In this document: positions 2,544 to 52,376 of the stretch, piece after piece
Numbering within the stretch: position 1 is the first letter of the stretch
Layout of the letters: the number at the start of each line of letters is the position of its first letter
Source of the DNA: an uncultured Candidatus Saccharibacteria bacterium
GTDB taxonomy: Bacteria; Patescibacteriota; Minisyncoccia; Minisyncoccales; JANBVM01
DNA length: 64,000 nt
Assembly: GCA_964450805.1 (NCBI GenBank)
Contig: CAYVDD010000001.1
Location: 393,288-457,287, forward strand
Reading direction: 5' to 3'
Made by a program: the position numbers and the translations under genes
The notes under the pieces: generated by a model
Databases searched by the model: none
The model's input: only the letters and a program-made list of their open reading frames with translations
What the model was told of the DNA's origin: nothing

Positions 2544-2607
2544 GATAGATAAAGATTATTCTAAGTAAACGACCTTTACTGCTTATTACTACAATCAAAC
2601 CAGGATT

Positions 2608-3357: not shown

Positions 3358-3907
3358 GTCCCTTTTCCTTATAAACACTATTTAAAATATCCCTGCCCCT
3401 TTTAAGCCTCACTCCAACTGTTGAGACAGGTATCCTCATAATCTCTGAAATCTCCTGATAATTCATTTCTTCAAAATAATAAAGGACCAAAGGCTCCCTG
3501 TACTTTACATCTAAACTACTGATGCATTTATTAAGAAGCTCATGCAGTTCCTTATCTAAAACATTCTGATGGATGTCGTCCTGAATCAGTTTCTGGGGCA
3601 GAAACGTGTCAAACTCAAATAAAGACAAAGGAGACCTTTTCTTTTTTTTCATAACATTAATGAATTCATTGTGAGCAATACGGTAAAGCCAGGTTGAGAA
3701 CTTCCTTTTAACATCAAAGCTTTGTATGTTCTCATAAGCTTTAAGAAATATGTTCTGGACAGTATCTTCAATATCTTCATGCTCAGAGATGAATTTTCTT
3801 CCATACCTTGTAATCTTCTTTTCATAGCGCACCACCAAGATTTCAAAAAAATCAGCCTTGCCTGCTTGAACCAAACCAGCTATTTGTTCATCTGATTGTT
3901 GCTCCAT
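3350..3907 (-). CDS. ECF-type sigma-70 family RNA polymerase sigma factor
   Basis: 185 aa. The region 2 pattern is FSTWLYRIAHNEFINVMKKK. The region 4 HTH is MNYQEISEIMRIPVSTVGVRLKRGRDIL. Confidence 0.85.
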   Translation of the reverse strand: MEQQSDEQIAGLVQAGKADFFEILVVRYEKKITRYGRKFISEHEDIEDTVQNIFLKAYENIQSFDVKRKFSTWLYRIAHNEFINVMKKKKRSPLSLFEFDTFLPQKLIQDDIHQNVLDKELHELLNKCISSLDVKYREPLVLYYFEEMNYQEISEIMRIPVSTVGVRLKRGRDILNSVYKEKGHE

Positions 3908-10199: not shown

Positions 10200-10894
10200 A
10201 TATCAAAAAATGGGGAAATTGCCTGCTGTATTTCCAAAAGATAATCTCTGGAATAAGGCCTTAAGCTTTCAAATGCTGGATTAATTGTTTTTTCTCCCTT
10301 GAAATTTTGAAGATAATATCTTTTTGCTGGCTTTATCCAATCAACAATTTTTAAAATATCTTTTTTTCCATGAAGACTTGGAACCACTGTTGTACGGAAT
10401 TCATAATCAATTTTAGATTTTTTCAAAACATTGATGCTTTTTTCAATGTTTTTCATAATGTTGCTTTTTAAAACCCCTGATACTCCAATAATCTGAAGAT
10501 ATTTTTCTTTTGGAGCTTTAATATCCATGGCCACATAATTTATTAATTTTTTATCAATCAAATACTTAAGCATCTTAGGATTTGAACCATTGGTATCAAG
10601 TTTTACTAAAAATCCCAGTTTCTTAAGATGTTTAATAAAAGAAGGCAGGCTGTTGTTAATAGTTGGTTCTCCTCCGCATATAACCACTCCTTCCAATAAT
10701 TCTTTTCTTTGTTTTAAAAAAGAAAAAAGTTCTTTTTTTGAAAAAACCGGCTGGTTTTTAATTTTTTCCGGCAAAACAAGTTCTGAGGAATAACAAAAAC
10801 CACAACGAAAATTGCAGCCAATTAAAAAAACCGTGGCTGCTAAATGGCCAGGGTAATCAATAAGAGTAAGTTTTTGAAGACCGCCAATCTTCAT
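10184..10894 (-). CDS. nrdG: anaerobic ribonucleoside-triphosphate reductase activating protein (radical SAM)
   Basis: Cluster motif CNFRCGFCY, followed by GVVICGGEPT. It lies immediately downstream of nrdD. Confidence 0.85.
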   Translation of the reverse strand: MKIGGLQKLTLIDYPGHLAATVFLIGCNFRCGFCYSSELVLPEKIKNQPVFSKKELFSFLKQRKELLEGVVICGGEPTINNSLPSFIKHLKKLGFLVKLDTNGSNPKMLKYLIDKKLINYVAMDIKAPKEKYLQIIGVSGVLKSNIMKNIEKSINVLKKSKIDYEFRTTVVPSLHGKKDILKIVDWIKPAKRYYLQNFKGEKTINPAFESLRPYSRDYLLEIQQAISPFFDICQVR

Positions 10895-10897
10895 AAA

Positions 10898-13036
10898 TTA
10901 AGTATTGGTTAATGATTTCTTTTTTAATTTAAATTCTTTTCTGTCTTTCCATTCAGCTTTTTTGCCATCATTCCATTGTGAAACAGGACGAATATAACCA
11001 ACTATCCTAGAATAAACCTCGCATGGCTGTTTGATAGTGCATTTTGGACACTGAAAATGTTCTCCTGATAAATAACCATGAGTAGGACAGATTGAAAAAG
11101 TAGGAGTTAAAGTAATATATGGAAGATGGAATTTTTCAAATACTTTTTTAACTAAAGCTTTTACAGTTAATATTTCAGAAATATTTTCACCTAGAAATAA
11201 ATGTAAAACAGTGCCACCTGTATACTTGCATTGAATTTCATCTTGAAGTTTTAAAGCTTCAAAAGCATCTGTTGTAGAGTTAACTGGCAATTGACTTGAA
11301 TTCGTATAATATGGTGTTTTTTTAGTCCCAGCAGTAATAATATCAGGATACTGCTTTTTATCTTTTAAAGCCAAACGAAAAGCAGTGCTTTCAGCTGGCG
11401 TGGCTTCTAGATTATAAATATTGCCTGTTTTGTCCTGATATTCCACTAGTTTCTTTCTCATAAAGTCCATAATTTCTAGAGAAAACCTTCTTCCTTTTCG
11501 TGAAGCAATGTCTGAACCAATAAAATTAAGAAGAGCTTCGTTCATTCCAACTATTCCTATAGTTGAAAAATGGTTAGCATAATAAGCATTTCTCATTTTT
11601 TTAATACCCTCAAGATAATATTTGGAATAAGGGTAAAGGCCTTTTGTAATATAATTTTCCAAAATCTTTCTTTTAATTTCCAGACTTTCCTGAGCTAAAT
11701 CCATCATTCTTGCTAATTGTTTGAAAAAATCTTTCTTGGTTTTTGATAAATAGCCAATTCTTGGAAGATTAATTGTCACCACTCCAATACTTCCAGTGAG
11801 CGCTCCTGCACCAAACAGACCTCCTCCGCCACGATTGTGAAGCTGTTTTAGGTCAAGACGAAGCCTGCAACACATTGAACGAACGTCTTCTGGCTTCATT
11901 TCTGAATTAATATAATTGGCAAAATAATTAGTTCCGTATTTTCCTGAAGCCTGAAAAATCAAATCAAAAGCAGGATCATCCCAGGAAAAATCTTTTGTAA
12001 TATTTATTGTTGGAATAGGAAAATGAAATGGTTTTCCAGTCTTGTCTCCTTCAAGGATTATTTCATAGAATGCTTTATTGAAAATTTTCATTTCCTCTTC
12101 AAACTCAGCATAAGTTTCTTTTTGAGGCTTACCGCCAATTATAACAGATTGTTTGGCAAAAGAAGGCGAAGGTTTTAAATCTAAAGTAATATTACTGAAA
12201 GGACATTGAAACCCCACTCTTGTTGGAACAGCCATATTATAAAGAAATTCCTGAAGCGCTTGCTTAACCTGCTTATAATTCAAATTGTCATAACGGATAA
12301 GCGGAGCCAGCAGTGTATCAAAATTCGACATAGCAACTGCTCCTGCTACCTCTCCCTGAAGAGTGTATAAAAAGTTTACCACCTGTCCCAGAGCAGGTCT
12401 TAAGTGTTTAGGTGGTTTTGATTCTACCTTGCCTCTTACCCCGCCGAAACCTCTAATTAAAAGGTCATATAAATCCCAGCCACTGCAGTAACATCCTAAA
12501 GTATCTAAATTATGTATATGAAAATCTCCAAATTCATTAGCATCTCTAATTTCTTTGGGATAAACTTTATTTAACCAATATCTTTTAATAATATAAGAAA
12601 CACCATAACGATTTAATCCCTGCAGAGAAAAAGCCATGTTAGCGTTTTCCTGAACCTCCCAGTCAAGCCTTCCTAAATAATCGTCAATTCTATCCACTGC
12701 CTGTTCGCTGACTGCTTCTGATTCTCTTATCCTTCTGCGCTGTTCTCTATAAAGAATATAGGCTTTAGCAGTTTCAATCAAACCATTTAGAATCAAAACT
12801 TCTTCAACAATATCCTGAATCTGCTCAACATGAGGTATTTCATCTTTTTTAAAACGTCTATTCAAAATTTTAATTACTTGTTTAGCAAGTCTTTTTGATT
12901 TTATACCATCACCCTGACCAGTAGCAGTAATAGCTTTAAAAATTGCATTAGAAATCTTCTGCTCGTTAAAACCAACAATAGTACCGTCTCTTTTCTGAAC
13001 TTTGACGGTTTTAACTTGAGTAATCTTTTGAACCAT
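10898..13036 (-). CDS. nrdD: anaerobic ribonucleoside-triphosphate reductase (class III)
   Basis: N-terminal ATP-cone (VQKRDGTIVGFNEQKISNAIFKA). C-terminal Zn site CPTHGYLSGEHFQCPKC. Glycyl-radical motif SRIVGYIRP. Confidence 0.9.
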   Translation of the reverse strand: MVQKITQVKTVKVQKRDGTIVGFNEQKISNAIFKAITATGQGDGIKSKRLAKQVIKILNRRFKKDEIPHVEQIQDIVEEVLILNGLIETAKAYILYREQRRRIRESEAVSEQAVDRIDDYLGRLDWEVQENANMAFSLQGLNRYGVSYIIKRYWLNKVYPKEIRDANEFGDFHIHNLDTLGCYCSGWDLYDLLIRGFGGVRGKVESKPPKHLRPALGQVVNFLYTLQGEVAGAVAMSNFDTLLAPLIRYDNLNYKQVKQALQEFLYNMAVPTRVGFQCPFSNITLDLKPSPSFAKQSVIIGGKPQKETYAEFEEEMKIFNKAFYEIILEGDKTGKPFHFPIPTINITKDFSWDDPAFDLIFQASGKYGTNYFANYINSEMKPEDVRSMCCRLRLDLKQLHNRGGGGLFGAGALTGSIGVVTINLPRIGYLSKTKKDFFKQLARMMDLAQESLEIKRKILENYITKGLYPYSKYYLEGIKKMRNAYYANHFSTIGIVGMNEALLNFIGSDIASRKGRRFSLEIMDFMRKKLVEYQDKTGNIYNLEATPAESTAFRLALKDKKQYPDIITAGTKKTPYYTNSSQLPVNSTTDAFEALKLQDEIQCKYTGGTVLHLFLGENISEILTVKALVKKVFEKFHLPYITLTPTFSICPTHGYLSGEHFQCPKCTIKQPCEVYSRIVGYIRPVSQWNDGKKAEWKDRKEFKLKKKSLTNT

Positions 13037-21944: not shown

Positions 21945-22029
21945 GGGCAAGTGGCGGAACTGGTTTACGCGTAGCACTCAAAATGCTATGGGCTTTAAGC
22001 CCGTGTGGGTTCGAGTCCCACCTTGCCCA
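21945..22029 (+). tRNA. tRNA-Leu (anticodon CAA)
   Basis: Hand-folded cloverleaf. Acceptor stem GGGCAAG/CTTGCCC plus discriminator A. Anticodon stem TAGCA/TGCTA with loop CTCAAAA. Long variable arm GGGCTTTAAGCCC (class II). T-arm GTGGG-TTCGAGT-CCCAC. No encoded CCA. Confidence 0.9.
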
Positions 22030-41081: not shown

Positions 41082-41101
41082 ATACTTACATTCTATCAAA
41101 A

Positions 41102-41120
41102 AATCGCTTATTAAGCGATT
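41102..41120 (-). terminator. intrinsic terminator ending the lipoprotein operon
   Basis: 8-bp stem AATCGCTT (41102-41109) / AAGCGATT (41113-41120), with T-runs on both strands. Confidence 0.6.
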
Positions 41121-41144
41121 TTTTTATTCGACCAAGGATAAACA

Positions 41145-42245
41145 CTATTCTTCCCAAGAAAAAATAATAATGTTTTGTGCTCCCTCTATTACCTTCTTGA
41201 CAGCTACTATTTTACTGCCAGTCCTATCCCAGACAGGATCCAAGTAATAACACTCGGGAATACCAAGAATATTCCTGGGGACAGCGAACGTGTGCCTAAT
41301 ATTGGTGCCGTCAGAGTTTATGATTCCTATATCCGGAATTTCCACTTCCTGAAGAGGAGATTCTGCGAATAAAATCTCGTTATCCTTATTCCATGCCCTC
41401 TGGAATATCCACTGGTAAGTACCGGTTGGCGCATGTATTCTGTGCTTATTGGAACCGTTACTGTTCATAACCCATATCTCATTCGGCGCTTTTGGCAATT
41501 TATCAATGCTGGCATCCCATATAGGACCCTTGGTGTAAACGATTTCTGAGCCGTCATAACTGAAAGATGCAAAACTGCACTCTCCATCCGCAGAAGCGGT
41601 AAGCCGGGTTTTAGCGCTTCCGTTAGAATTCATTGTCCAAATAGATGGGTTTTCGGTCCCATAGTGGGTATATACGATTTTTGTACCGTCCGGACTCCAC
41701 GCAGGCTGACCATTGAGGTATTCGCTCGTCAACTTGCTGATATTCCCGCCATCGGAACTCATGGTGTAAATCTGCCCATTCAATTCATAAGCTATCTTAT
41801 CTCCTAAGGGACTCCAGGACGGATCAAATCCTGAGCCGATATTTTTAAGCCCGCTCCCGTCAGCATTAATTACATATAGTGTTCTTGTCCCCCCTTGCAT
41901 AACGCAAAAGACAATTCGGCTTCCGTCAGGACTCCAGTCCGGATCAATGGCATTATCCAAAGAAGTAACCTGTATCGGAATTAAAACAGATTCTTTATTT
42001 TCTTCTGATCCCCCATTTTCTGGGACCTCTTCTTTTTCCGGACTTATTCCTTCTTCCTCTTCTGAAATTCCATTATTTCCGCCTGCCTCCTCTTGAACTA
42101 CGGGAGTTTCCTCTCCAAAAACCTGATCTAAAATACCATCTTCATCTAAACCTCCTTTCTCAGACGGTAATTCTCCACATCCTGCCCCAATCAAAGCTAA
42201 AATCGCCAAAAGCAGATAAGGAATAATAATGGTTTTTTTGGCCAT
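41145..42245 (-). CDS. lipoprotein with TolB-like PD40 beta-propeller repeats
   Basis: Signal peptide plus lipobox MAKKTIIIPYLLLAILALIGAGCG, then an acidic linker. Repeats are DPDWSPDGSRIVF, DPSWSPLGDKIAY, QPAWSPDGTKIVY and FSYDGSEIVY. Confidence 0.8.
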   Translation of the reverse strand: MAKKTIIIPYLLLAILALIGAGCGELPSEKGGLDEDGILDQVFGEETPVVQEEAGGNNGISEEEEGISPEKEEVPENGGSEENKESVLIPIQVTSLDNAIDPDWSPDGSRIVFCVMQGGTRTLYVINADGSGLKNIGSGFDPSWSPLGDKIAYELNGQIYTMSSDGGNISKLTSEYLNGQPAWSPDGTKIVYTHYGTENPSIWTMNSNGSAKTRLTASADGECSFASFSYDGSEIVYTKGPIWDASIDKLPKAPNEIWVMNSNGSNKHRIHAPTGTYQWIFQRAWNKDNEILFAESPLQEVEIPDIGIINSDGTNIRHTFAVPRNILGIPECYYLDPVWDRTGSKIVAVKKVIEGAQNIIIFSWEE

Positions 42246-42271
42246 TAAATTTTTAATCAGTAATTTAATTA

Positions 42272-43483
42272 TTACAATTTTTCCTTGAACCAGGTTTTAA
42301 TTTCAGTCAAGCTCTGGGTTCCTATCAGTCCTCTATCTAAATCAGGCGGCGGGTCAAGGGCAAAAAACCCCTGAACTTTTCCTTGCCCTTCTTCAAAAAC
42401 AATCCTGTGGGCCAGCATCTTTTCCTCCTCAGTAAAGCTTAAAGCGCCTCCCCAGGCACCAAATTCAGTAAACATTATTTCTGGGACGCCATCCCTCTGG
42501 GCCCAGCTCTGCATATTTTCCAATATTACCTGCACGGCTGAACGGTATTCGGTCAAAGAATTTGGCCCTCCCCCGGGAGTGGGGTCAGCCCCGATAATGT
42601 CGTATCCCGAATAATCAACCTGCGCGTTTTCAGCTATGGCATAAGCGCTTTTGAAAAGAATCTTGCCTGAGTAATTGGCTGTCACGATGGGCAAAATCTG
42701 CCTGCTCCACGTGTCAGCTCCCGCCACTCCCAATTTCAAATCAGGCTCATTCATGGGCGAGAATATATCCAATTTATACTTTTCAGCCAGCGCTACCAGC
42801 TGCCCCACCAGGGTATTGTAGTCATCAAAAAATCCCGGTGTTTCAGCAGCATTCTCGGGAAAAGGAGGAGGTCCGCCAGCAGGCACTCCCTGACCAAAAC
42901 TCTCCACATACATGATTTCAAGAACCAAGCCCATTCTGATGCCTGCTGTATAGTATGTTTGAGCCATTTGTGCCAACCTGCCTTCAAAAGACAATAAATT
43001 GCTGTAAGGATTCCCCAAGAACACCTCCCCGTCAGTGTTTATCTCTATTGTTGGTCCGAAAAGTACGATATTGGCCCCGGCATCTGCCAAAGCAGCAGTA
43101 CCAGACATTGACTGCATGTTATCTGACATGAAAAGAGTCGGCATCCAAAACCCTTTGTACATGGAAACTGTTCCAGAAGGCGGCTGAGGAATTGTCTCTT
43201 CTTCTTCCGGAATATTGTCTTCCTCATCTTCGGCAGAAGGCGTGGCTTCAGACGAATCTTCTTCTGACGGCTGGGAAGCACTTTCTTCTTCTCCGCCGTT
43301 CAAATCCTCATCTTGGACAACCGCCTCTTCTTCACCGTCCAAGCCTTCATCTGAAGCAATTTCCTCGCCATCCCCTCCGGAAAGAGGTGCGCCTTCCTCA
43401 GCTACTTTCTTTCCGCAGCCCGCCCCAAACAAAATTAAACTTGCCAAAAGCAGAATCGGCAAAGCATGTTTTAATTTAAGCAT
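42272..43483 (-). CDS. lipoprotein with GH5-like glycoside hydrolase domain
   Basis: The likely start is the ATG at 43483, giving MLKLKHALPILLLASLILFGAGCG. A long Asp/Glu/Ser-rich linker follows. Catalytic-Glu contexts are SPMNEPDL and MFTEFGAWGG. Confidence 0.65.
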   Translation of the reverse strand: MLKLKHALPILLLASLILFGAGCGKKVAEEGAPLSGGDGEEIASDEGLDGEEEAVVQDEDLNGGEEESASQPSEEDSSEATPSAEDEEDNIPEEEETIPQPPSGTVSMYKGFWMPTLFMSDNMQSMSGTAALADAGANIVLFGPTIEINTDGEVFLGNPYSNLLSFEGRLAQMAQTYYTAGIRMGLVLEIMYVESFGQGVPAGGPPPFPENAAETPGFFDDYNTLVGQLVALAEKYKLDIFSPMNEPDLKLGVAGADTWSRQILPIVTANYSGKILFKSAYAIAENAQVDYSGYDIIGADPTPGGGPNSLTEYRSAVQVILENMQSWAQRDGVPEIMFTEFGAWGGALSFTEEEKMLAHRIVFEEGQGKVQGFFALDPPPDLDRGLIGTQSLTEIKTWFKEKL

Positions 43484-43578
43484 GATAAAATTTGATAAAT
43501 TTGTTTCCGGCAATGGATTTTATTCCACTGCCGGGTTTCGACTTTTTAAATAATTCATTCCTGTAATATTTTATAAGC

Positions 43579-44133
43579 TCAATCCGTATAATAAAGAATG
43601 CCTATCCAGGTGCGCTGCAATGCTGCATCCGACATTATGTTCACTTCTAGATATTCTGTGGCGGTTATAGAATAAAGGTTTATTTCCTCCCCTGTTCCCG
43701 GAGCCTCCTGCCAGCTCCTCTGCGCCCTGTACCAGTTCAAGACCGTGTCAAAATCGTCTGTGGTTTTGTAGTTGATTTCAGCTGAAAAAGACACGGGCAT
43801 ATCTTCCCAGGCAGGCGAACGATACTTGTACATGACTGATCCAGGATATCTCGTCATGGGCTCCATTCCCGAAGCCTGGTCTGAACCAGGCATCCAATCT
43901 TCCTCTCCTTCCTCCTCTTCCTCTCCTTCCCCTGGAACCAATCCCGCGCTAACGCATTTGTTGTTCTTGCACGCATAACCAGCAGGGCAATCCTTTATTT
44001 CGTACTGCCCGTCAGCGCAGCACTCAAACGGACAATCCGGCAAAGTTGCTCCCTGCTGGCCGCAGCCCGCCCCAATCAAAACCAGAATGCCCAACACCAA
44101 GACCGGAATAACAAATTTGTGCTTGTTGTGCAT
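43579..44133 (-). CDS. lipoprotein, Cys-rich N-module + unknown domain
   Basis: MHNKHKFVIPVLVLGILVLIGAGCG, then CPFECCADGQYEIKDCPAGYACKNNKC, then the poly-Glu linker GEGEEEEEGEED. Confidence 0.7.
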   Translation of the reverse strand: MHNKHKFVIPVLVLGILVLIGAGCGQQGATLPDCPFECCADGQYEIKDCPAGYACKNNKCVSAGLVPGEGEEEEEGEEDWMPGSDQASGMEPMTRYPGSVMYKYRSPAWEDMPVSFSAEINYKTTDDFDTVLNWYRAQRSWQEAPGTGEEINLYSITATEYLEVNIMSDAALQRTWIGILYYTD

Positions 44134-44154
44134 GATAATTTAATTGATTATTGA

Positions 44155-44814
44155 TTAAAACCCGAAAGGTATGTCCATTATCTGAACGCCTGCCGGCAAT
44201 TCAAACATGCTGTCAGCAATATCGCCCACTTGTATGTTGCGCAGTTCAGTGACAATGGATTCTCCTGTGTGAGAGGTAAGCTCTGTCTTGATGGGAATTC
44301 CCCTGCTTGTCCAGAGCCACCATTTAATGACATCTCCCTGGTCAGAAGTGCCCTGCACTACCAAACAGGTTTTGCCGTCCCAAACTTCAGTACCCAATAC
44401 AACTGGATTCTGGTCTGGAATTCCTTGCGTTGCTTCGCTAGGCGACTCTCCCACCGCTCCCCTGGCTGTGGCAAAGCTTTGTTTCATGGCCATGTTTTGA
44501 GACGGCATATAAATATAGGCGGTCTGCTGGGCTGTGTTGAGAATGTAAATCACGTTTTGGCCCTCAACGCTTCCTTCCCAACGCATATTGGCGCCCTCTA
44601 CCCACATCGTGGATTCCATGGTTTGCTGGTTGCTCTGGGTTATAACCATGTCAAAATTATAGCCCCCGATACGCTCGGCATTGGCCAAAACCTCATCTAA
44701 GCTCATTTCCTCTCCGGCAGGCGTGCCGTCGCTAGTTTTATCACCGCAGCCAGCTCCAACCAGAGCTAAAACTGCCAAAAGTGAAATTGGGATGAAAATT
44801 AATTTCTTATTCAT
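44155..44814 (-). CDS. lipoprotein (LolA/DUF4367-like fold suspected)
   Basis: MNKKLIFIPISLLAVLALVGAGCG. The fold guess rests only on the beta-rich MWVEGANMRWEGSVEGQNVIYILNTAQQTAYIYMP pattern. Confidence 0.65.
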   Translation of the reverse strand: MNKKLIFIPISLLAVLALVGAGCGDKTSDGTPAGEEMSLDEVLANAERIGGYNFDMVITQSNQQTMESTMWVEGANMRWEGSVEGQNVIYILNTAQQTAYIYMPSQNMAMKQSFATARGAVGESPSEATQGIPDQNPVVLGTEVWDGKTCLVVQGTSDQGDVIKWWLWTSRGIPIKTELTSHTGESIVTELRNIQVGDIADSMFELPAGVQIMDIPFGF

Positions 44815-44864
44815 GAATTATTTTTTAATTTTTAATTTGAACTATTCCCGACCTTTGCTTTATT

Positions 44865-45569
44865 TTATTCATCACAATGCTTTATCATTGCTCTTCCTGT
44901 TATTATAACAACCATGACTGCCAAAGATAACCACTGGGCTGTGGAAAACATAAGATAGTGCGGGTCTGACAAGGGAGTGTCCGCAGAACGGGTGAAATCC
45001 AGAAAAAAGCGGGAAAAAGAATATAAGAACAAAAAAGCCTGGAAAAGCTGGCCGGGCTTACTTAAACGGGTCTGCAAATGCCTGATGATGAAAAACAAAA
45101 CAAGAGCGCTGATTATCAAATACAAAGCCACTGGGTGACGGACAGTTCCGTCAGGCCAGACTATTCCCCAAGGCAGAGAAGTCTCAGCTCCCTGATGGTC
45201 GTTTATCAAAAAGCAGCCAATCCTGCCCAGAGCAATGGAAACAGGGACAATCAAAGCTGCTGTGTCGGCAATCGGAAAGAACAAATGAAGATTTCCACTT
45301 AATTTCAAACACAGGAATCCGGCAATTAAAACTCCAAACAATCCTCCGAAAGAACTCAATCCTCCCTGGCCCAGCAACATGCTTCCTGCAGCCCCGCCCA
45401 GAAACAGCCAAATGAATAAATTATGGACAATCCCGACATCAACCCCTTTTTCAGGAGCCTTTCTCAGCATGAAAACATAGGCGATTAAAATCCCTGCAGC
45501 AACACAAAGCCCCCAGACCTGAAGATTAATTGAACCTATTGCGATTTCACTGAACGAAAAATAAGGCAT
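44865..45569 (-). CDS. lgt: prolipoprotein diacylglyceryl transferase
   Basis: Motifs ALGRIGCFLINDHQG, RHPVALYLIISA and YSFSRFFLDFTR match Lgt signature regions. It overlaps lspA by 34 nt. Confidence 0.8.
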   Translation of the reverse strand: MPYFSFSEIAIGSINLQVWGLCVAAGILIAYVFMLRKAPEKGVDVGIVHNLFIWLFLGGAAGSMLLGQGGLSSFGGLFGVLIAGFLCLKLSGNLHLFFPIADTAALIVPVSIALGRIGCFLINDHQGAETSLPWGIVWPDGTVRHPVALYLIISALVLFFIIRHLQTRLSKPGQLFQAFLFLYSFSRFFLDFTRSADTPLSDPHYLMFSTAQWLSLAVMVVIITGRAMIKHCDE

Positions 45570-45937
45570 AAGATTCCTCCAATTATCATTATATCAGCGA
45601 TGTTGAAAATGGATATCGGCAGAAAAGCAACTCTTATCCAATCAATAACATAGCCAAAATAAATCCTGTCAAAAAGATTGCTCAATCCTCCAAAAACAAT
45701 CAAAGAAAACCCAGTCATTAAAACAATGTCCTTTTTCTGCAAGCTTTTGAAAAACAAAAAAACAAGCAATAATAATACTGCTCCAATTAAAAAATAAAGC
45801 AGGTTGGAATTTAAGGAAACAAAATACAGCTTGGGATTTTTAAAAAGTAGAGCTGAATCTAATGCCAGCCGTTTTGTCAATCTGTCCAAAATCATCAAGC
45901 CAGAATTAAAAAATATTAAAATGAGCAGAGTGTTCAT
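45536..45937 (-). CDS. lspA: lipoprotein signal peptidase II
   Basis: Motifs GGLSNLFDR, VIDWI and FNIADIMI are the conserved LspA Asn/Asp boxes. Confidence 0.8.
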   Translation of the reverse strand: MNTLLILIFFNSGLMILDRLTKRLALDSALLFKNPKLYFVSLNSNLLYFLIGAVLLLLVFLFFKSLQKKDIVLMTGFSLIVFGGLSNLFDRIYFGYVIDWIRVAFLPISIFNIADIMIIGGILCLIFRSVKSQ

Positions 45938-46010
45938 AAAAATTTATCTTTTATTTTATCATTGGCTGAAAAGAAACCAAAGAATTTTTAAAAAGAATCT
46001 AATAAAAGTA

Positions 46011-46150
46011 AAAAACCGCCCTTAAGGCGATTCTTTGTTAAAAGTTACAAGCTCCCCTTATTGGACGCGTTCAGAACCGTTGATTGGGGAAAGATTAAGG
46101 AAAACCTTAAGGACTTGGAACCTATTTTGGCTGGATTTTGAATAAAAAAA
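46011..46150. repeat. intergenic repeat, copy 1 (hairpin + GCTCCCC + Y-type core)
   Basis: GC hairpin CGCC/GGCG (46017-46029) with T6 on the minus strand. GCTCCCC is at 46051-46057. A 22-nt run at 46060-46081 is identical to 58383-58404. The similarity continues to about 46146. Confidence 0.8.
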
Positions 46151-46158
46151 GATGGTGA

Positions 46159-46311
46159 CTAAAAACCAATCTGGATTCTGCTGTCGTACTCTTCCCTGTT
46201 TGTCTTACTATCCTGAGCTGTAAAATTGGTAATTATATCTTTAGCCATTTCCGGCTTGGCAAAATCAAGTTTGATATAATCTTCTTTTTTCAATTTACTA
46301 TTTCTATTCAT
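46159..46311 (-). CDS. small hypothetical protein (50 aa)
   Basis: ATG at 46309-46311 with only a weak SD (GGAAAG). The product is MNRNSKLKKEDYIKLDFAKPEMAKDIITNFTAQDSKTNREEYDSRIQIGF. It is not in the track because it is under 60 aa. Confidence 0.3.
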   Translation of the reverse strand: MNRNSKLKKEDYIKLDFAKPEMAKDIITNFTAQDSKTNREEYDSRIQIGF

Positions 46312-46328
46312 ACTTTCCAAATAAAAAA

Positions 46329-46346
46329 AGGTAATGATTATTACCT
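46329..46346 (-). terminator. intrinsic terminator ending the radical-SAM operon
   Basis: 7-bp stem AGGTAAT (46329-46335) / ATTACCT (46340-46346) with a 4-nt loop. The minus strand continues with T8. Confidence 0.6.
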
Positions 46347-46366
46347 TTATTCAAGTATTTATTATT

Positions 46367-46534
46367 TTAAAAAATACCTTTATCGCATTTTTCTATTCTT
46401 CCAAAACAGTAAGTACGCTCTTTGCTCTTGGCACGACAAGTATAATGAAATTTTCTATATCTATTAGAAAAGAAAATATAGAAATGTGGACATAAGTCCA
46501 TATCTGCACCCTTATCCTGAATTTTATATACCAA
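46367..46534 (-). CDS. small Cys-rich ORF (44-55 aa; start uncertain)
   Basis: The frame is open from 46713 down to the TAA at 46367-46369, with no ATG/GTG/TTG until the TTG at 46532-46534. That TTG is preceded by GAGGAG with a 9-nt spacer. An ATG lies at 46499-46501. The C-terminus is MDLCPHFYIFFSNRYRKFHYTCRAKSKERTYCFGRIEKCDKGIF (4 Cys). Confidence 0.4.
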   Translation of the reverse strand: MVYKIQDKGADMDLCPHFYIFFSNRYRKFHYTCRAKSKERTYCFGRIEKCDKGIF

Positions 46535-46688
46535 ATATAATTGCTCCTCAGCCGAGAGAAAACTTAAAGATTCTTTAAAAATATTGATCTGTATTAAAAT
46601 TTCATCTAATCTTTTCCACCTTTCATTTACATTAGATAAATTCCTTAATTCTATTATGTGACCTCTAGCTTTTATCTCCTTAAATAAC

Positions 46689-47729
46689 TCATCTATAAAA
46701 TGTATGATCTTCCACCCCCTTTAATTGATTAATTAAATTAAGGTTAAGATGAGAACAAAAAGAATCCAGCTTTAAGGTGGCAACTCGAGAAGCAAATTCT
46801 CCCGCATCCTTTAAAGAATAATTTCTATGGAGAGCACATGTAAAAGCAGCAGCAAAAGCATCACCAATACCTATCTTTGAAATATCATTTTTTGCCCTTA
46901 CAGAACTAGAATTAATTATAATCTTCTCCCTGCCTGAATGAATCAACGCTCCTTTTTCGCCATAAGTTACAATGCATATTTCTACTTTTTTCAATATTTT
47001 TCTAATCGGATTTTCACAATACTTATATTCGTGTTGATTCATAAAAATTATATCTGCTGAATTATTAACAATGTCAAGGATATCTTTTCTGTCTTTAATT
47101 GGGATAGTATCAACGCCCCCAATATTAATTATCACTTTTTTATTCCAACTATTTGCTAATTGAACAAATTCTCTCCAAATAGGCCTGATTTTTTCTGTGT
47201 TTGCTGAAAAAAGGCTACTAAAAAAAATGGTACTCTTTTTCAATTCTTTCTTTAATTTTAAATCACAATCTAAGCAACAAGAAGCACCATAATCAACGAT
47301 TTTAACCCTTTTATAGCTACTAATTTCTTTTTTCTCTGGTATCCAAGCTACTAAAATAGAGCATGTATTATTATTCTCTTTTTCATTAATTATCGCACTC
47401 AGAATTTTTGTTTCTTCCAAACAGATTTTTAGTTTCTCTTTAAATATTAAACTTGCATTATCATCTCCGATAACACCAGCTAAAATAGAAGGTAAACCCA
47501 ATAATGAACAATTTATACCAAAATTAAACTCCACGCCTCCAATTGAAAACAAGAGATCTTCCTTTTTATTTACATTACTTATAATCTCAGAGATACTCAA
47601 TTTACTAATTTCTTCTTTTGGAAGACTAGAAGGGTTAACAGAAAAAATATCTTTAATGCGACTTGAATTATTGATTATTATATTTATATCAAGAATAGGT
47701 CTGCCTAAACAGAAAACTCTGTCTTTCAT
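46689..47729 (-). CDS. PfkB-family sugar/nucleoside kinase
   Basis: N-terminal GG motif region IGGVEFNFGINCSLLG and C-terminal GIGDAFAAAF (the PfkB anion-hole/DxxGAGD-like motif). Confidence 0.6.
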   Translation of the reverse strand: MKDRVFCLGRPILDINIIINNSSRIKDIFSVNPSSLPKEEISKLSISEIISNVNKKEDLLFSIGGVEFNFGINCSLLGLPSILAGVIGDDNASLIFKEKLKICLEETKILSAIINEKENNNTCSILVAWIPEKKEISSYKRVKIVDYGASCCLDCDLKLKKELKKSTIFFSSLFSANTEKIRPIWREFVQLANSWNKKVIINIGGVDTIPIKDRKDILDIVNNSADIIFMNQHEYKYCENPIRKILKKVEICIVTYGEKGALIHSGREKIIINSSSVRAKNDISKIGIGDAFAAAFTCALHRNYSLKDAGEFASRVATLKLDSFCSHLNLNLINQLKGVEDHTFYR

Positions 47730-47788
47730 TTTTTTTCATCTCGATTTTTAAATTTTAAAAAGCTTCTCGTTTATTTTACATAAAAAGT

Positions 47789-48448
47789 TTAATTTTGCAA
47801 ATTAAAATATAAATATTTATCAAGTCTTTTAACAACATCTTTTATGCCTTTTCTAATTTTTAATAGTTCTGGCTGACTGCAATCAAAAAAGGGAAGAGAA
47901 AATGGCTTATCGGTCACGAGAAGTATAGAAATAACAGGGATGTTCTTTTTTCTTCCCCACTCGTAGAGATAATAAGTTTCCATATCTATTATGTCTATTT
48001 TATCATCCTGAAATTTCTTTAGAAATTTTGAACCTAAAATCATCTGTGATGTAGTTGCTATTTTATACTTTATTTCTAATTTAACTAACGAATTTATTTT
48101 TAATTTTTCTAAAACTGCAGTTTTAGGAATGACGACTTCACCTACCTGTAAATTTTGATTCAAAGCACCACAGAAACCAAGAAGAATAATTTTTCTAATT
48201 CTCGAAGGAACGAAAATTTCAAAACAATCTTTTATATGAGAACCAAGGGGAACTTTTAATATTGTTACTGGATTTGAATTGACCTTTATTTTTGTTCTCT
48301 TCCACCAGCCTTTTGTTTCTTCAATTAAAGGATAATGGGCTTTTATTTTCTCATAAATTTTATTTATTGGTGTAAGAATTACATAACCTTTTGGTAATTC
48401 AAAAGCACCAAAGAATGTGAAGAAAATTTTTTCTAAATTGCCTTTCAT
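47789..48448 (-). CDS. nucleoside phosphorylase/nucleosidase superfamily (PNP_UDP_1-like) protein
   Basis: Motifs ILLGFCGALNQNLQVGEVVIP and IIDMETYYLYEW...ISILLVTDKP resemble the MTA/SAH-nucleosidase and futalosine-hydrolase motifs. Confidence 0.55.
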   Translation of the reverse strand: MKGNLEKIFFTFFGAFELPKGYVILTPINKIYEKIKAHYPLIEETKGWWKRTKIKVNSNPVTILKVPLGSHIKDCFEIFVPSRIRKIILLGFCGALNQNLQVGEVVIPKTAVLEKLKINSLVKLEIKYKIATTSQMILGSKFLKKFQDDKIDIIDMETYYLYEWGRKKNIPVISILLVTDKPFSLPFFDCSQPELLKIRKGIKDVVKRLDKYLYFNLQN

Positions 48449-48464
48449 AACTAATTCCTAATAA

Positions 48465-49691
48465 TTAGTCTAAAATTAGAGAACGAAATTTTTCTTTTAA
48501 AGGAATACCCTTCTTCTCTGCCGAATAAATGCTCCATAAAAAATGGTCCAGTAAAGTGTTGTTTAAAATACACTCTCTTTCGTCAACGCTATTTTTATAT
48601 CTCATGATCCCATCCCAAAAACAACCTCCTCCGCAAACCCCTATAGCTGGACATCCTTTACAAAAATCGTTGTTAACAGGAATGTTTTCTTGAAAATATT
48701 TCAAATTATACTTACTAGAATTCTCTAAGCTATCAATTTTCGTACAAAAAGTTTCTCTCCCGCTAGGATAAAATGTCTTTTGTTCTCCGGCTATTTTACA
48801 ACCATAGAACCTAAATTTTTTATTTATCAGTGGTGAAAATCTCTTTGCTAATTGATCAATATAAATTTTTTTCTCTATTGCGAAATCAAATAATTTAATC
48901 ATCTCTTCAGTATATTTTTCCATATCGAAATTAAATTTTTTATCTCTAACAAAATGGGGAAAGCTTACCCCTATATATTTAACTTTTAAGTCTTCACTAA
49001 AAAATTTAACTACTTCTGATAAACGCCCAACATTATCGCCTGAAGCAAGACAGACGATACCTAAACTACAATTATTCTCTTGAAGAGTCTTAATGTTTTT
49101 AATAACTTTTTGGTAAATATTTTCACCATTCTTAAATTTCCTTTGTTTATTGTCTGTTTCTTTCCCATCTAAAGAAATCAAAAGCCTAACATGCTTATTA
49201 TCTTTTAAAACTCTCAAAATATCTTCGTTAATAATAGTGCCATTAGTGAATATTTTAATCGGATCTTTGATATGATTAATAAGAAATTTAACAACTTTCC
49301 AATTTAAAAAAGGTTCTCCCCCTATTATCATACAAGAGCCTTTTTTAATATTTTTCTTATAAAAAGAAATAATTTCCCGGGCCGTCTTTAATCCCATAGA
49401 AGTATTAACTTCCGAGAGTTTGTTTTTATAAACCAAACAATAATCACATGCGCAATTACAAGAAAGAGTTACTTCTATTCGAATCTTTCTTAATAACGGA
49501 GTTTTAAAAACTACATTTGGAGTTTGACCTTCCATTTGCTTCACAATGTGATTTAAACTTGGAAGAAAATCTTGAGCAGAATCTAAATATATTGTCCCAA
49601 AACTCTTTCTATTAAACAGTATAATTTTATCTCTTCTATTAAAACTAAATACATTATCAGAAAGTTGCTTTATACTACTTCTCAAAAACAT
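48465..49691 (-). CDS. radical SAM enzyme with a full SPASM domain and an RRE/PqqD-like N-terminal extension
   Basis: CX3CX2C in SCNCACDYC, then MIIGGEPF. The C-terminus has a complete SPASM pattern: CKIAGEQKTFYPSGRETFC (C-x12-G-x4-C) plus CKGCPAIGVCGGGC (CX2CX5CX3C) plus a downstream Cys. The first ~65 aa (FSFNRRDKIILFNRKSFGTIYLDSAQDFL) resemble a peptide-recognition wHTH/beta-strand element. Confidence 0.8.
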   Translation of the reverse strand: MFLRSSIKQLSDNVFSFNRRDKIILFNRKSFGTIYLDSAQDFLPSLNHIVKQMEGQTPNVVFKTPLLRKIRIEVTLSCNCACDYCLVYKNKLSEVNTSMGLKTAREIISFYKKNIKKGSCMIIGGEPFLNWKVVKFLINHIKDPIKIFTNGTIINEDILRVLKDNKHVRLLISLDGKETDNKQRKFKNGENIYQKVIKNIKTLQENNCSLGIVCLASGDNVGRLSEVVKFFSEDLKVKYIGVSFPHFVRDKKFNFDMEKYTEEMIKLFDFAIEKKIYIDQLAKRFSPLINKKFRFYGCKIAGEQKTFYPSGRETFCTKIDSLENSSKYNLKYFQENIPVNNDFCKGCPAIGVCGGGCFWDGIMRYKNSVDERECILNNTLLDHFLWSIYSAEKKGIPLKEKFRSLILD

Positions 49692-49696
49692 TTTCT

Positions 49697-50713
49697 TTAT
49701 TTTTTATTATAGATAATATTAATACCTTCATCTTTCAGTTCTTTTTTAAAAAAATTCTTAAGAAAAAATTTATAAGCTGAAGATATAAAGTATCCCGTAT
49801 AACTTCTAGGAATCCCTTTCCAATCAGGACACTGAGAACAAGGAAACATAGAAAAATCGCCCTTGAGTTGCCGCTCTCTAAGTTCTATCATCTTTTGGCT
49901 GTTCCAAATTTCTATCAGACTTTTCTCCTTCACATTTCCTACTTTTAAATTTCCTTGTAAATCCTGGCAGCAAACCAATACGTCTCCATTCCACAAAATT
50001 ACTAAAGTTTCCCAAAGGTAAAAACAGGGAAGTCGGTTCTTAATTTTCTGCTTCAGTTTAGAAATTTCCTCAAAGGGTTCTATATTTTTAGCTTCCCAAG
50101 CTCTCGAACAAAAAGATTTTATATTAATATAATTAATATCTGTTCTCTTCCATTTTTCAATAAAAGGCTTAACCTCATCTTCATTAATTTTCATTTTAAT
50201 CATCTGAATTTGTGTTTTTGTTCTAAGCCCTTTTTCTTTCTTAATATCAAGAAATTTAAAAATGTTATTCTCGACGACGTCAAAATCAGCTCCCCTTCTT
50301 ATTTTCTCATAGGTTTCTTTTCTAAATCCATCTACTGAAAAAACAATATAATCTAATCCGGCTTCCATAAGTCTTAGAGAAGTGTCCTTGTCAAGAAGGG
50401 TGGCATTAGTAGAAAGTCTAGTTCTTATTCCATTATTCTTTAAGATTTTAATAATTTCTGGTAATTTGGGGTGAAGAAGCGGTTCGCCAGCGAAATGAAG
50501 CCAAATATACTGATCCCTAAGTATTTCTTTATTTTTATCAATGAGAGATTGTAATAATTCAAGCCCTAAAAATCCTTGTTCTCTAGAGCTTTTATCTATA
50601 CAAATAGGACAGTTTAAATTACAGAAATTGGTTGGTTCTATATTTAAAATTTTAGGATAAGAAGAGATTTTTGATTTCCTCTCTATATATTCTTTAACTT
50701 TAGTAGAGATCAT
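49697..50713 (-). CDS. radical SAM enzyme, SPASM/twitch subfamily
   Basis: Motifs TNFCNLNCPIC and HFAGEPLL. The C-terminus has CFYLWETLVILWNGDVLVC (C-x12-G-x4-C) and CSQC. Confidence 0.8.
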   Translation of the reverse strand: MISTKVKEYIERKSKISSYPKILNIEPTNFCNLNCPICIDKSSREQGFLGLELLQSLIDKNKEILRDQYIWLHFAGEPLLHPKLPEIIKILKNNGIRTRLSTNATLLDKDTSLRLMEAGLDYIVFSVDGFRKETYEKIRRGADFDVVENNIFKFLDIKKEKGLRTKTQIQMIKMKINEDEVKPFIEKWKRTDINYINIKSFCSRAWEAKNIEPFEEISKLKQKIKNRLPCFYLWETLVILWNGDVLVCCQDLQGNLKVGNVKEKSLIEIWNSQKMIELRERQLKGDFSMFPCSQCPDWKGIPRSYTGYFISSAYKFFLKNFFKKELKDEGINIIYNKK

Positions 50714-51309
50714 TTTTCTAAATGAGAAAAATCGTTAATTATAATTGGATCAAAAATTAATTTTTTTTTGTGCTCGAGAACAGTAAGGCCAGTGGTACGA
50801 AAATGAATTTTCTCTATTTCATCAAGAGATAAATTGGTTAAGCTCTTCAAAAGAACCTTTATTACAGTAACATGTGTTACCAATAATACGTCTTTGTTTC
50901 TTTTCACCAGTTCTGAAATAAATGGCAGAATTCTTTGTTCGGCGTCTTTATAACTTTCCCCTTCCGGAATAGTAACATTCCATTTATCTTCTTTTCTTTT
51001 ATGATATATCTCGGGGTAATTTTGTTCAGCTTCCTCTAAAGTCAATCTCTCAAAAATTCCAAAATTCACCTCGTTAAGGGCGGGGGTAATATTAACTTTT
51101 AAAGATAAGTATTCTTCTATAGCATTTGCTGTCTGAATAGCTCTTTTTAACTGGCTTGAGTAAATTTCTTGAATACCCTTATGTTTAAGTCTTTCACCTA
51201 TTTTGTGGGATTGAGAAACACCTTCTTCTGTTAAATCTAAATCTGTAAAGCTCAGAAAACCTATCTTTTTCCATGATATCGATCCATGTCTTGTAACAAA
51301 AATTTTCAT
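50710..51309 (-). CDS. histidine phosphatase (phosphoglycerate-mutase-like) family protein
   Basis: N-terminal catalytic RHG (IFVTRHGSISW) and second His context LLVTHVTVIK. It overlaps the downstream rSAM gene by 4 nt. Confidence 0.75.
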   Translation of the reverse strand: MKIFVTRHGSISWKKIGFLSFTDLDLTEEGVSQSHKIGERLKHKGIQEIYSSQLKRAIQTANAIEEYLSLKVNITPALNEVNFGIFERLTLEEAEQNYPEIYHKRKEDKWNVTIPEGESYKDAEQRILPFISELVKRNKDVLLVTHVTVIKVLLKSLTNLSLDEIEKIHFRTTGLTVLEHKKKLIFDPIIINDFSHLEK

Positions 51310-51338
51310 ATTTTTATTTTAATTTCTTAATTTTAAAT

Positions 51339-52325
51339 TTATTCACTAATTTTAGGAAGAACATCATTTGAATAGTATGACTTATTCTGATATTTTGCCA
51401 TAAAAGGGCACCCTATCATTTTTTCAGCCTTTCTTCTTTCAACCATTTTTCTAAAACTTGAAATTTCTTTTGACTCAGTTAATTCTTTAAAATTTTTTTT
51501 ATGCAAAGATTCTTTTGTGGTAAATGATTGATCTGTTTTATAAACCCAGGAGCATGGAGAAAGATAACCTTCGGGACTCAAAAAAAAGAGGTCTTTTCCT
51601 CCAGGACATAATTCTAAGCCTTTTTTTCCAAATGGATTTCGATGCATACTAATCAGTATTTTATCTTTATATTTTTCCTGAAGTTCTACTACTTCTTTTA
51701 TAATAGAAACATTGTCTCTTTCGGGGGAGAGAGATATATTATCTTTAAATCTACCAACTTTTACAATAGAACCCAGTCTTAACTCTTGAACACCCAAGGA
51801 AATACAAAAATTAACCATTTTTTCAAGATATTTTTCATTTTTCTTCCAAATAATACATCCCAATCTAACTGGAATTCCATACTTTACTAAAATTTTAATA
51901 TTTTCTACTACTTTATCAAAAAAATCTCCTCCGCGAAGATGGTTATAAATTGAAGCTTTATGCCCATCCAAACTCAAGTGCAAAAGATTAATCTTTATTT
52001 CAGATAAATCCTTAATTAATTTCTCGGTGAAAAGATAACCGTTCGTTGCCACATTAACCCTCTTATTGTTCTTTTTCAAATATTTCAGAAAATTCATTAA
52101 GTTCTGCTCTATAAAAGGTTCTCCTCCGCTAATATAAAAATCTTTAATGCCTGAATTCATTATTTCATCTAAAATATCTTCCGATAAATTAAAACTATCG
52201 CAATCAGAAGACAAAGAAGCATTTGAACAACAATGCTTGCATTTCATATTACATCTAGAAGTTACTTCCCATACCAACTTTTTTCCATCTCTTGGGGCAC
52301 TGAATAAACAAAAATTATTATTCAT
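51339..52325 (-). CDS. radical SAM enzyme, twitch/SPASM-like C-terminus
   Basis: Motifs SRCNMKCKHC and FYISGGEPF. The C-terminus has CPGGKDLFFLSPEGYLSPC (C-x12-G-x4-C). The track start (TTG at 52376) falls inside the -35 of the predicted promoter, so the ATG at 52323-52325 (MNNNFCLF) is preferred. Confidence 0.75.
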   Translation of the reverse strand: MNNNFCLFSAPRDGKKLVWEVTSRCNMKCKHCCSNASLSSDCDSFNLSEDILDEIMNSGIKDFYISGGEPFIEQNLMNFLKYLKKNNKRVNVATNGYLFTEKLIKDLSEIKINLLHLSLDGHKASIYNHLRGGDFFDKVVENIKILVKYGIPVRLGCIIWKKNEKYLEKMVNFCISLGVQELRLGSIVKVGRFKDNISLSPERDNVSIIKEVVELQEKYKDKILISMHRNPFGKKGLELCPGGKDLFFLSPEGYLSPCSWVYKTDQSFTTKESLHKKNFKELTESKEISSFRKMVERRKAEKMIGCPFMAKYQNKSYYSNDVLPKISE

Positions 52326-52347
52326 AATATTTATCTTTTCTATCTCC

Positions 52348-52376
52348 AAAATAGACTCTTTTTGGAAAAAATTCAA
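52348..52376 (-). promoter_or_regulatory. candidate promoter TTGAAT-17 nt-TATTTT for the radical-SAM operon
   Basis: Minus strand: -35 TTGAAT (52371-52376) and -10 TATTTT (52348-52353). The same hexamers and spacing recur at 58276-58304, directly after the repeat's terminator hairpin. Confidence 0.4.

Follow-up and report, generated by a model that had tools for sequence, protein, structure and literature searches.

How does a cell that cannot make its own lipids equip its surface with lipid-anchored proteins, and does it use a sorting code of its own to do so? Bacteria of the Candidate Phyla Radiation (CPR; Patescibacteria) are ultra-small symbionts unable to make their own lipids, and the way in which they build their surfaces is poorly understood. 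The question is raised by a gene cluster in a 64-kb stretch (hereafter the window) of contig CAYVDD010000001.1, from an uncultured bacterium of this group, in which lspA (signal peptidase II) and lgt (prolipoprotein diacylglyceryl transferase) are followed by four predicted lipoprotein genes, here called LP1 to LP4. An earlier note on this DNA had read the cluster as a dedicated surface-display module in which one stereotyped signal peptide was either shuffled among the genes or co-adapted to this Lgt/LspA pair. In this study, we found that the adjacency of lspA and lgt with piled-up lipoprotein genes, a LolA-fold protein being the usual first neighbour, is a lineage trait. We also found that the signal peptide is the generic one of the lineage, on an ending widespread in bacteria, and is not an operon-private code. 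Among the titles and abstracts listed, a literature search returned general Lgt/LspA papers only and no description of an lspA-lgt-substrate operon in Patescibacteria; it found no paper that joins the lipobox with the Candidate Phyla Radiation, and a Nealsonbacteria paper does not mention lipoproteins.

The locus and its signal peptide in relatives

We examined 80 loci around Lgt homologues from species-representative genomes, together with the contexts of the closest homologues. The relatives of the window Lgt are Patescibacteria metagenome-assembled genomes (MAGs), the closest of which are labelled Candidatus Nealsonbacteria, and many bulk-labelled 'Saccharibacteria' MAGs fall within the same Lgt clade. 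We defined the lineage by an identity of 50% or more to the window Lgt (n = 16 loci). The linkage of the enzymes with substrate genes is conserved in these relatives: lspA lies directly upstream of lgt, or overlaps it, in 15 of these 16 loci, and one to seven same-strand lipoprotein genes stand beside the pair in nearly every one. The starts of 26 of the 35 lineage-type lipoprotein genes lie within -1.5/+3 kb of lspA-lgt, a zone that makes up 26% of the sampled bases (binomial p = 3e-9, a value that overstates independence since many of the loci come from related MAGs). Lipoprotein density was 0.40 per kb near lspA-lgt compared to 0.05 per kb elsewhere. In 54 more distant Patescibacteria loci (L021-L074), lspA adjoining lgt was not detected, and the density of predicted lipoproteins was 0.012 per kb.

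The commonest partner of the enzyme pair is the LP1 family, which is found by lgt in nine relatives' loci and also in locus L210, and the LP2 family recurs in three relatives' loci. The flanking genes of lspA-lgt differ in every relative. The unit can also be copied: in locus L020 (7400-12400) there is a tandem duplication of lspA-lgt-LP1 (2117 bp, 98.6% identical), and the MAG CSMAG_1304 holds two separate lspA-lgt modules (L007 and L008), the lspA of L007 looking frameshifted. Three relatives' loci (L007 8722-9057, L008 8753-9085 and L004 11871-12188) also encode a small membrane protein of the MamF/MmsF family (PF09685), either immediately 3' of lgt or interspersed with the lipoprotein genes; the window cluster lacks it.

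The four N-termini in the window read as the earlier note gave them. They share ...L-x-L-x-GAGCG with the Cys at residue 23-24, and no further ORF (open reading frame) in the 64-kb window carries such a lipobox. A degenerate DNA pattern for L-x-x-L-x-L-x-G-A-G-C-G matched exactly these four sites in the window, compared to 0 in 100 shuffles, and a repeat search independently recovered the four signal-peptide coding segments as a 55-nt family of four copies with 69-71% identity. Compared with the usual criteria for a lipoprotein (K/R in the n-region, no charge in the h-region, and a lipobox [LVI][ASTVI][GAS]C whose Cys falls at about residue 15-35), LP1-LP4 fit in the n-region, the h-region, the position of the Cys and the residues at -2 and -1, and the residue at -3 is Gly, not L/V/I.

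Across the lineage, 34 distinct signal peptides from 15 genomes follow K-x-x-F-I-P-I-L-L-L-x-x-L-V-L-[VI]-G-[AG]-[GS]-C-G-E, with Gly at -3 in 34/34; Leu occupies positions -10, -7 and -5 in 90% of them or more. The same signal peptide is also found on genes 3-7 kb from lgt, and the stereotypy is thus lineage-wide and not private to the operon. We also scanned metagenome contigs with the degenerate pattern, which gave at least 120 matches; among the matches listed, 96 are bona fide lipoprotein N-termini. Again among the matches listed, 84 of these 96 L-x-L-x-GAGCG lipoproteins come from unrelated loci with at least 45% GC (mostly above 60%), none of them with lgt in the locus, and four contigs carry the full lineage-type signal peptide, all directly 3' of lspA-lgt (two already-known lineages). 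These matches show that '...LALVGAGCG' is a common bacterial lipoprotein ending. Gly at -3 had been considered as a lipobox feature unique to the lineage, and this candidate was dropped after the scan found the GAGC box commonly elsewhere. An alignment of the 42-aa signal peptide and tether gave nothing at E <= 10 against a database of 5.8 billion proteins. By itself, a signal peptide that is stereotyped within one operon does not demonstrate a private sorting code.

The six ORFs of the cluster are consecutive on the minus strand of the window (Table 1). The six frames and the 34-nt lspA/lgt overlap given in the earlier note were all confirmed, and the terminator that it placed after LP4 was borne out by an inverted repeat. 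A GGAGG lies 6 nt ahead of the lgt ATG, and the spacers from lgt through LP4 are 50, 21, 95 and 26 nt. The sequence of the lspA/lgt junction is kept across eight relatives, with an overlap of 34 nt in L002 and L008 and of 31 nt in L004. The overlap makes translational coupling probable, and the arrangement suggests that lspA and lgt would be translated together in this way. The six genes form a real gene cluster and are probably a single operon, in which the hairpin of the LP2-LP3 spacer is possibly an RNA processing or stability element. For LP3, the program-made ORF list has a TTG start at 43513 (ORF 42272-43513) and the public gene call the ATG at 43483, and the public call together with signal-peptide logic favours the latter.

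Table 1. Features of the lspA-lgt-lipoprotein cluster in the window
Feature	Position	Strand	Description
lspA	45536-45937	-	133 aa, short signal peptidase II; Pfam Peptidase_A8
lgt	44865-45569	-	234 aa, short prolipoprotein diacylglyceryl transferase; Pfam LGT
LP1	44155-44814	-	predicted LolA-fold lipoprotein, DUF4412 family
LP2	43579-44133	-	lipoprotein: 6-Cys module, short acidic linker, C-terminal domain
LP3	42272-43483	-	lipoprotein, 403 aa: acidic tether and predicted GH113-like (clan GH-A) TIM-barrel glycosidase
LP4	41145-42245	-	lipoprotein: acidic tether and PD40 (TolB-like) beta-propeller
upstream terminator-like hairpin	46010-46036	-	12-pair stem and T-run just 5' of lspA; upstream limit of the unit
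downstream terminator	41095-41127	-	inverted repeat with 16-nt arms, A and T runs on the flanks, just 3' of LP4; downstream limit
lspA/lgt junction	45536-45580	-	GGAGG at 45576-45580; lgt ATG at 45567-45569; 34-nt reading-frame overlap
spacer hairpin	43507-43534	-	11-bp stem, 6-nt loop, in the 95-nt LP2-LP3 spacer; no T-run after it

A 156-aa antisense ORF within LP1 (44230-44700, plus strand) appears 'conserved' in relatives by tblastn, but is most likely no gene of its own and only the shadow of a GC-rich one. Upstream of the cluster, the 750 bp between lspA and a PfkB gene (45938-46688) contain no ORF of more than 55 aa and no Rfam match. According to the L001 gene list, the genes directly upstream on the same strand (46689-52349, minus strand) encode a PfkB-family kinase, a PNP/UDP-phosphorylase-like protein, three radical-SAM proteins (one with SPASM) and a histidine phosphatase.

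Enzymes and substrates

LspA scored 57.4 bits against Pfam PF01252 (Peptidase_A8; cut-off 25) and 47.7 against TIGR00077, which is under the cut-off of 73.95. It could be aligned to the solved structures 9emz, 5dir and 6ryo, and the catalytic-Asp motifs NLFDR and FNIAD are both present and align with those of 9emz and 5dir. Its N-terminal ~45 residues, about a third of the protein, gave no match to the family profile, and it is 72-79% identical to the LspA of relatives. Lgt scored 122.3 bits against Pfam PF01790 (cut-off 24.9), spanning profile positions 4-235 of 240, and 85.3 against the NCBIfam equivalog TIGR00544, under the cut-off of 118.9, which indicates a family member and not a typical equivalog. 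As predictions from sequence, both assignments are solid at the family level.

The catalytic centre of E. coli Lgt comprises R143, R239, E243, R246, Y235, E151 and G154, and that enzyme no longer complements after any of the substitutions tested at H103 and at Y26 (PMC4728403). In an alignment with 5azb, the window Lgt keeps R143, G154, Y235, R239 and R246 as R116, G127, Y183, R187 and R194, and has Asp at the positions of E151 and E243 (D124 and D191). These equivalents (R116, R187, D191, R194, Y183, D124 and G127) are invariant or nearly so among 44 relatives. Three other positions are changed: W19 stands at the Y26 position, F74 at that of H103 (the His of HGGL) and C119 at that of N146. 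The Cys at the N146 position is present in all 44 CPR Lgt relatives aligned. The HGGL His is replaced by F, L or V throughout the Lgt subclade of at least 61% identity, and the group at 53-59% identity retains 'HGG' with one exception (P0036, Phe). Either the mechanism tolerates the changes at F74, W19 and C119, or the enzyme works differently, and a variant without a His that is indispensable in E. coli offers a natural test of Lgt chemistry. From the conservation of both enzymes and of the lipobox Cys in the neighbouring proteins, we infer that LspA and Lgt are probably active.

The mature parts of the four lipoproteins have no pairwise similarity and differ in fold. This agrees with the earlier note, which had called them unrelated, and for the same reasons the possibility that LP1-LP4 are diverged paralogues was ruled out. 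LP1 scored 32 bits against DUF4412 (cut-off 21.6), with a weak match to LolA_like. Its AlphaFold2 (AF2) model, built with 61 homologues, has a pLDDT (predicted local distance difference test score) of 90, and the top 30 PDB matches in Foldseek are all LolA or LolA-superfamily proteins (E down to 6e-10). The best of them are LolA from several species, and M. tuberculosis LprG is a further hit. Both the profile and the model place LP1 in the LolA/LolB superfamily, which is marked by an unclosed beta-barrel with a helical lid and of which it is a predicted member. Its mature part begins with ~20 mildly acidic residues. In LP2, the lipid-anchor Cys is followed by a stretch of 27 residues with 6 Cys and then by an acidic linker of 12 residues, and its C-terminal domain also occurs in lgt-adjacent lipoproteins of L004, L008 and L011.

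The LP3 sequence taken singly gave no match in Pfam or PDB sequence searches. The profile of its family touches GH113 mannanases, and 51 of 56 homologues match PF22612 (GH113) weakly. The AF2 model of LP3 has a pLDDT of 95.5, and its best Foldseek matches are GH113 mannanases (E 3e-15, TM-score (template modelling score) 0.70), followed by GH5, GH2 and other clan GH-A enzymes. Clan GH-A barrels have their acid/base Glu behind strand 4 (NEP) and their nucleophile Glu behind strand 7; the acid/base Glu of the NEP motif (E151) is invariant in the LP3 family and the nucleophile Glu of TEFG (E245) is nearly invariant. LP3 is best described, on its model, as a GH113-like glycosidase of clan GH-A, the clan that is shared with GH5; membership of GH113 proper is not claimed because the window protein has no Pfam match of its own. 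The LP3 family, which includes P0126 and P0144, crosses domains among small symbionts: besides CPR bacteria, it occurs in DPANN archaea (Ca. Burarchaeum australiense, 49% identical) and in one MAG of Actinobacteria.

LP4 has PD40 repeats (Pfam). It scored 88.6 against TIGR02800, under the cut-off of 343 and over the propeller part only, and an assignment as TolB was therefore rejected. An LP4 homologue just upstream of lspA in L008 has 'GLGAGG' where the lipobox would be and no Cys, which makes it transmembrane-anchored. The fold labels of the earlier note thus stood for the LolA-like, Cys-rich and PD40 proteins, and its 'GH5-like' label for LP3 was right at the level of the clan, for which GH113-like is more precise. 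Its statement that three of the four proteins begin with long Asp/Glu-rich tethers did not stand: only LP3 (~75 aa, 30 D/E) and LP4 (~63 aa, ~21 D/E) have them, and LP1 and LP2 have short acidic linkers.

Growth, origin and competing explanations

In relatives, the 5' module of these genes does move between proteins. In L002, neighbouring lipoprotein genes with unrelated mature parts have 118 nt in common at 100% identity, from the h-region through the lipobox and into an acidic tether of 24 residues; this indicates recent gene conversion of the 5' module. The exchange sites lie at 10731-10900 and 11446-11620, one gene being DUF4412-like and the other beta-propeller-like. The LP3 family gives a second case. 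The window copy is alone among 75 members in having this signal peptide and a long tether. Its nearest homologue (67% identical) has a transmembrane anchor fused directly to the same 'IPQPPSG...' domain, and lies near dnaG-rpoD with no lgt within 10 kb. Two more transmembrane-anchored homologues also have no lgt nearby, and archaeal and other bacterial members have ordinary lipoboxes. Since the lipobox module is unique to the window copy and the transmembrane-anchored homologues lie away from lgt, LP3 appears to have joined the lgt locus along with a newly acquired N-terminal module. Among the window's own four signal-peptide coding regions, recent recombination was rejected, since they differ at synonymous sites and their nucleotide identity is what the shared amino acids require. 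The shuffling of signal peptides proposed in the earlier note is thus supported in the lineage, by L002 and the LP3 family, and not among the four genes of the window. Three processes enlarge the locus in relatives and may have acted here as well: the unit is duplicated as a whole, genes are recruited from other places, and 5' parts with signal peptide and tether are exchanged.

The cluster is a GC island in the window, with a GC content of 0.42-0.52 compared to ~0.31 for the rest. The GC content at third codon positions (GC3) is 0.36 for lspA, 0.45 for lgt, 0.52 for LP1, 0.56 for LP2, 0.47 for LP3 and 0.40 for LP4, compared to 0.243 +/- 0.049 for the 47 other window ORFs of at least 150 aa, which gives z-scores of 3.2-6.5 for lgt and LP1-LP4 and of 2.4 for lspA. 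In L210, the closest relative (Lgt 80% identical), genome GC3 is ~0.4 and the module does not stand out; for nrdD, a backbone gene, GC3 is 0.44 there and 0.23 in the window. Identity to L210 is 78% for NrdD and 63% for NrdG in the backbone, and 80% for Lgt, 72% for LspA and 69% for LP1 in the module, so that backbone and module have diverged to a similar extent (63-78% vs 69-80%), a comparison that has L210 as its sole reference and is not decisive. A search for integration scars found no flanking direct repeats, no tRNA nearby (the only tRNA of the window is at 21945) and no Rfam match in the region. Because the GC3 of the module is far above that of the host genome, import from a GC-richer relative is suggested, and most likely the host belongs to the same lineage and received the module recently as a single piece. 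We consider that the gene arrangement is real, conserved and lineage-specific, that there is evidence of its modular growth and that its transfer as a unit is probable.

Our preferred reading, in which we have moderate confidence as a whole, combines the cluster, the lineage trait, the generic signal peptide, the import and a benefit of co-inheritance. The cluster would encode lipoprotein maturation in full, with both of the steps that a cell with one membrane uses, together with four substrates. These substrates would be exported by Sec, as in the known pathway, after which Lgt would attach diacylglycerol to the lipobox Cys (...L-[VI]-G-A-G-C-G) and LspA would then cut before that Cys. The lipid would keep the mature domains at the external side of the membrane, where two of them would sit on acidic tethers of 60-75 residues. 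The likely benefit is that a small lipoproteome may be co-expressed and co-inherited with its two processing enzymes.

Several points weigh against this reading. A hairpin lies in the LP2-LP3 spacer, within the unit that would be co-transcribed. The examined DNA is 64 kb out of a ~636-kb contig, and lipoproteins elsewhere in the genome are possible. The lipoproteins in all loci were called by a simple home-made predictor, and the relatedness of the sampled MAGs bears on the enrichment as stated above. The Lgt subclade is without the HGGL His and has Trp at the Y26 position, and both of the residues replaced are essential in E. coli. Finally, the module of close relatives has a GC3 excess of the same sign that is small (+0.05 to +0.2), and the excess in the window could reflect GC-biased gene conversion at a recombination-prone locus rather than import.

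This last explanation attributes the high GC3 of the module to GC-biased gene conversion, or to selection, at an often-recombining locus with no import at all. It agrees with the gene conversion and tandem duplication documented at the locus in relatives and with the modest excess in close relatives. However, the relatives have a far smaller excess than the window (+0.16 to +0.32), no recent conversion is seen in the four signal-peptide regions here, and the module of L210 matches its own genome. We therefore regard biased conversion without import as unlikely.

It is rather improbable that the adjacency has no function, and that lspA-lgt merely happens to lie in a variable 'surface-protein island' where a shared signal peptide reflects descent and lineage composition. 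Transmembrane-anchored acidic-tether proteins, Sec-secreted proteins and small membrane proteins are also found around lspA-lgt in relatives, and the variable flanking genes would fit such an island. It would leave out of account that lipoprotein density is ~8-fold higher beside lspA-lgt, that the LolA-fold partner is retained through changing contexts, that lspA-lgt-LP1 was duplicated as one 2.1-kb unit and that in the LP3 family the lipobox is found only in the copy sitting at lgt.

A dedicated display system, with a private stereotyped signal peptide co-adapted to this Lgt/LspA pair in the manner of sortases and exosortases, was the explanation put forward in the earlier note, and we consider it distinctly improbable. 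Several observations would suit it: the uniformity of the lineage signal peptides in their Gly at -3 and their Leu positions, the rarity of Gly at -3 in the lipoboxes of the broad LP1 family (6/97), a divergent Lgt that is short, has Cys at the N146 position and belongs to a subclade that lost the HGGL His, and a short LspA whose N-terminal third lies off the family profile. However, the signal peptide is common to all lipoproteins seen in the 15 genomes, including those away from lgt, and half of the motif recurs, among the matches listed, on the 84 unrelated high-GC lipoproteins that have no lgt in the locus, so that co-adaptation to this pair is not upheld. No second 'general' lgt/lspA pair was seen. 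In addition, a transmembrane anchor, 'MKTKILIALIVLIGLGAGGFF.YQN', on unrelated neighbouring proteins of lineage genomes is equally stereotyped. That other N-terminal classes are as stereotyped argues against a special co-adaptation of signal peptide and enzyme pair, and the low N-terminal diversity looks like a habit of the lineage. What stands of the display module is the conserved linkage of enzymes and substrates; what falls is the private signal, which is shared lineage-wide and has a core found in organisms without lgt linkage.

The anchor, in the form 'M-x-T-K-I-L-I-A-L-I-V-L-I-G-L-G-A-G-G-F-F-x-Y-Q-N', was found on unrelated surface proteins at L087 10001-12137, L008 6623-7639 and L002 6737-7927. 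It resembles the lipoprotein signal peptide minus the Cys, and a change of one base (GGN to TGY) would give a GAGC lipobox.

That the GC-rich segment is an assembly chimera or contamination is highly improbable, since for all the sharp GC step at the cluster edges the segment is internal, with host-like DNA on both sides and its edges at terminators, lspA at the upstream edge has an intermediate GC3, the lspA-lgt-lipoprotein synteny is kept in relatives, and the same Lgt and arrangement occur in two assemblies (an 86-kb Logan contig, SRR14802572, and the 636-kb NCBI contig).

The preferred reading, of a lineage-typical cluster with a generic signal peptide that was probably imported as a piece, can be carried further, into a joint reading that we regard as doubtful. 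In it, lspA-lgt and the LolA-fold lipoprotein would be a self-contained, horizontally mobile cassette holding essentially the whole lipoproteome. New members would be recruited by a signal-peptide-plus-tether swap or by a one-base Gly-to-Cys change from 'GLGAGG' to 'GAGC'. The His-less Lgt would have a modified mechanism or a different (host-derived) lipid donor, and its LolA-fold neighbour would transport acylated cargo through the wall, or to or from the host. Apart from this extension, the locus yields a testable shortlist (a LolA-like lipid binder, a glycosidase and a propeller) of proteins that may serve in host interaction or scavenging. It is also a case of enzyme-substrate co-inheritance, in which enzymes and substrates appear to have been inherited, duplicated and possibly transferred together.

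A second GC3 outlier in the window lies at 2070-3907 on the minus strand (0.38-0.42 vs 0.24). It holds an extracytoplasmic function (ECF)-type sigma factor (3350-3907), a putative anti-sigma membrane protein (2608-3378) and a secreted coiled-coil protein (2070-2543).

Comparison with known systems

The canonical Lgt-LspA pathway of Firmicutes and Mollicutes uses the same two enzyme families as the window cluster, on substrates with a signal peptide that ends in a lipobox Cys, and a single-membrane cell needs no Lnt. The window differs from it in that the enzymes are short (234 and 133 aa), in that Lgt lacks the HGGL His and carries W in place of Y26 and C in place of N146, and in that lspA and lgt overlap, with substrate genes after them. 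E. coli has its lspA in the ileS-lspA operon, separate from both lgt and substrate genes.

In sortase pilus islands, exosortase/PEP-CTERM and archaeosortase/PGF-CTERM systems, a dedicated paralogous enzyme acts on a signal that is used only by its clients. The window cluster resembles these in having a membrane processing enzyme beside proteins that combine a stereotyped sorting signal with unrelated passenger domains. Unlike in those systems, no second general enzyme pair is known here, and the core of the signal is common in bacteria. The private signal on which the logic of those systems depends was not found here: the signal is lineage-wide and its core occurs elsewhere without lgt linkage.

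The vlp, vsp and vsa families of mycoplasmas consist of paralogues with repetitive mature regions, phase-variable expression and a conserved 5' end that encodes the prolipoprotein signal peptide. They resemble the locus described here in their tandem lipoprotein genes with a conserved 5' end and in recombination between copies, as in the 118 nt of L002. They differ in that the mature domains here are unrelated folds, and to our knowledge linkage to lgt/lspA is no feature of those families. No phase-variation tract was noticed on reading the window sequence, in which no dedicated search for one was made.

LP1 shares its predicted fold with the LolA, LprG and LppX carriers, and like LprG and LppX it is a lipoprotein in a cell without the classical Lol pathway; neither LolCDE nor LolB was seen in the locus. 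Its identity to these carriers is at most 17%, and from the modelled fold we infer that LP1 may act as a carrier. LP3 differs from the GH113/GH5 (clan GH-A) beta-mannanases in its identity of ~15%, in having no Pfam match of its own and in belonging to a family spread across CPR bacteria, DPANN archaea and Actinobacteria. It resembles them in its modelled (beta/alpha)8 barrel with the NEP and TEFG Glu residues, the GH113 enzymes being its best structural matches.

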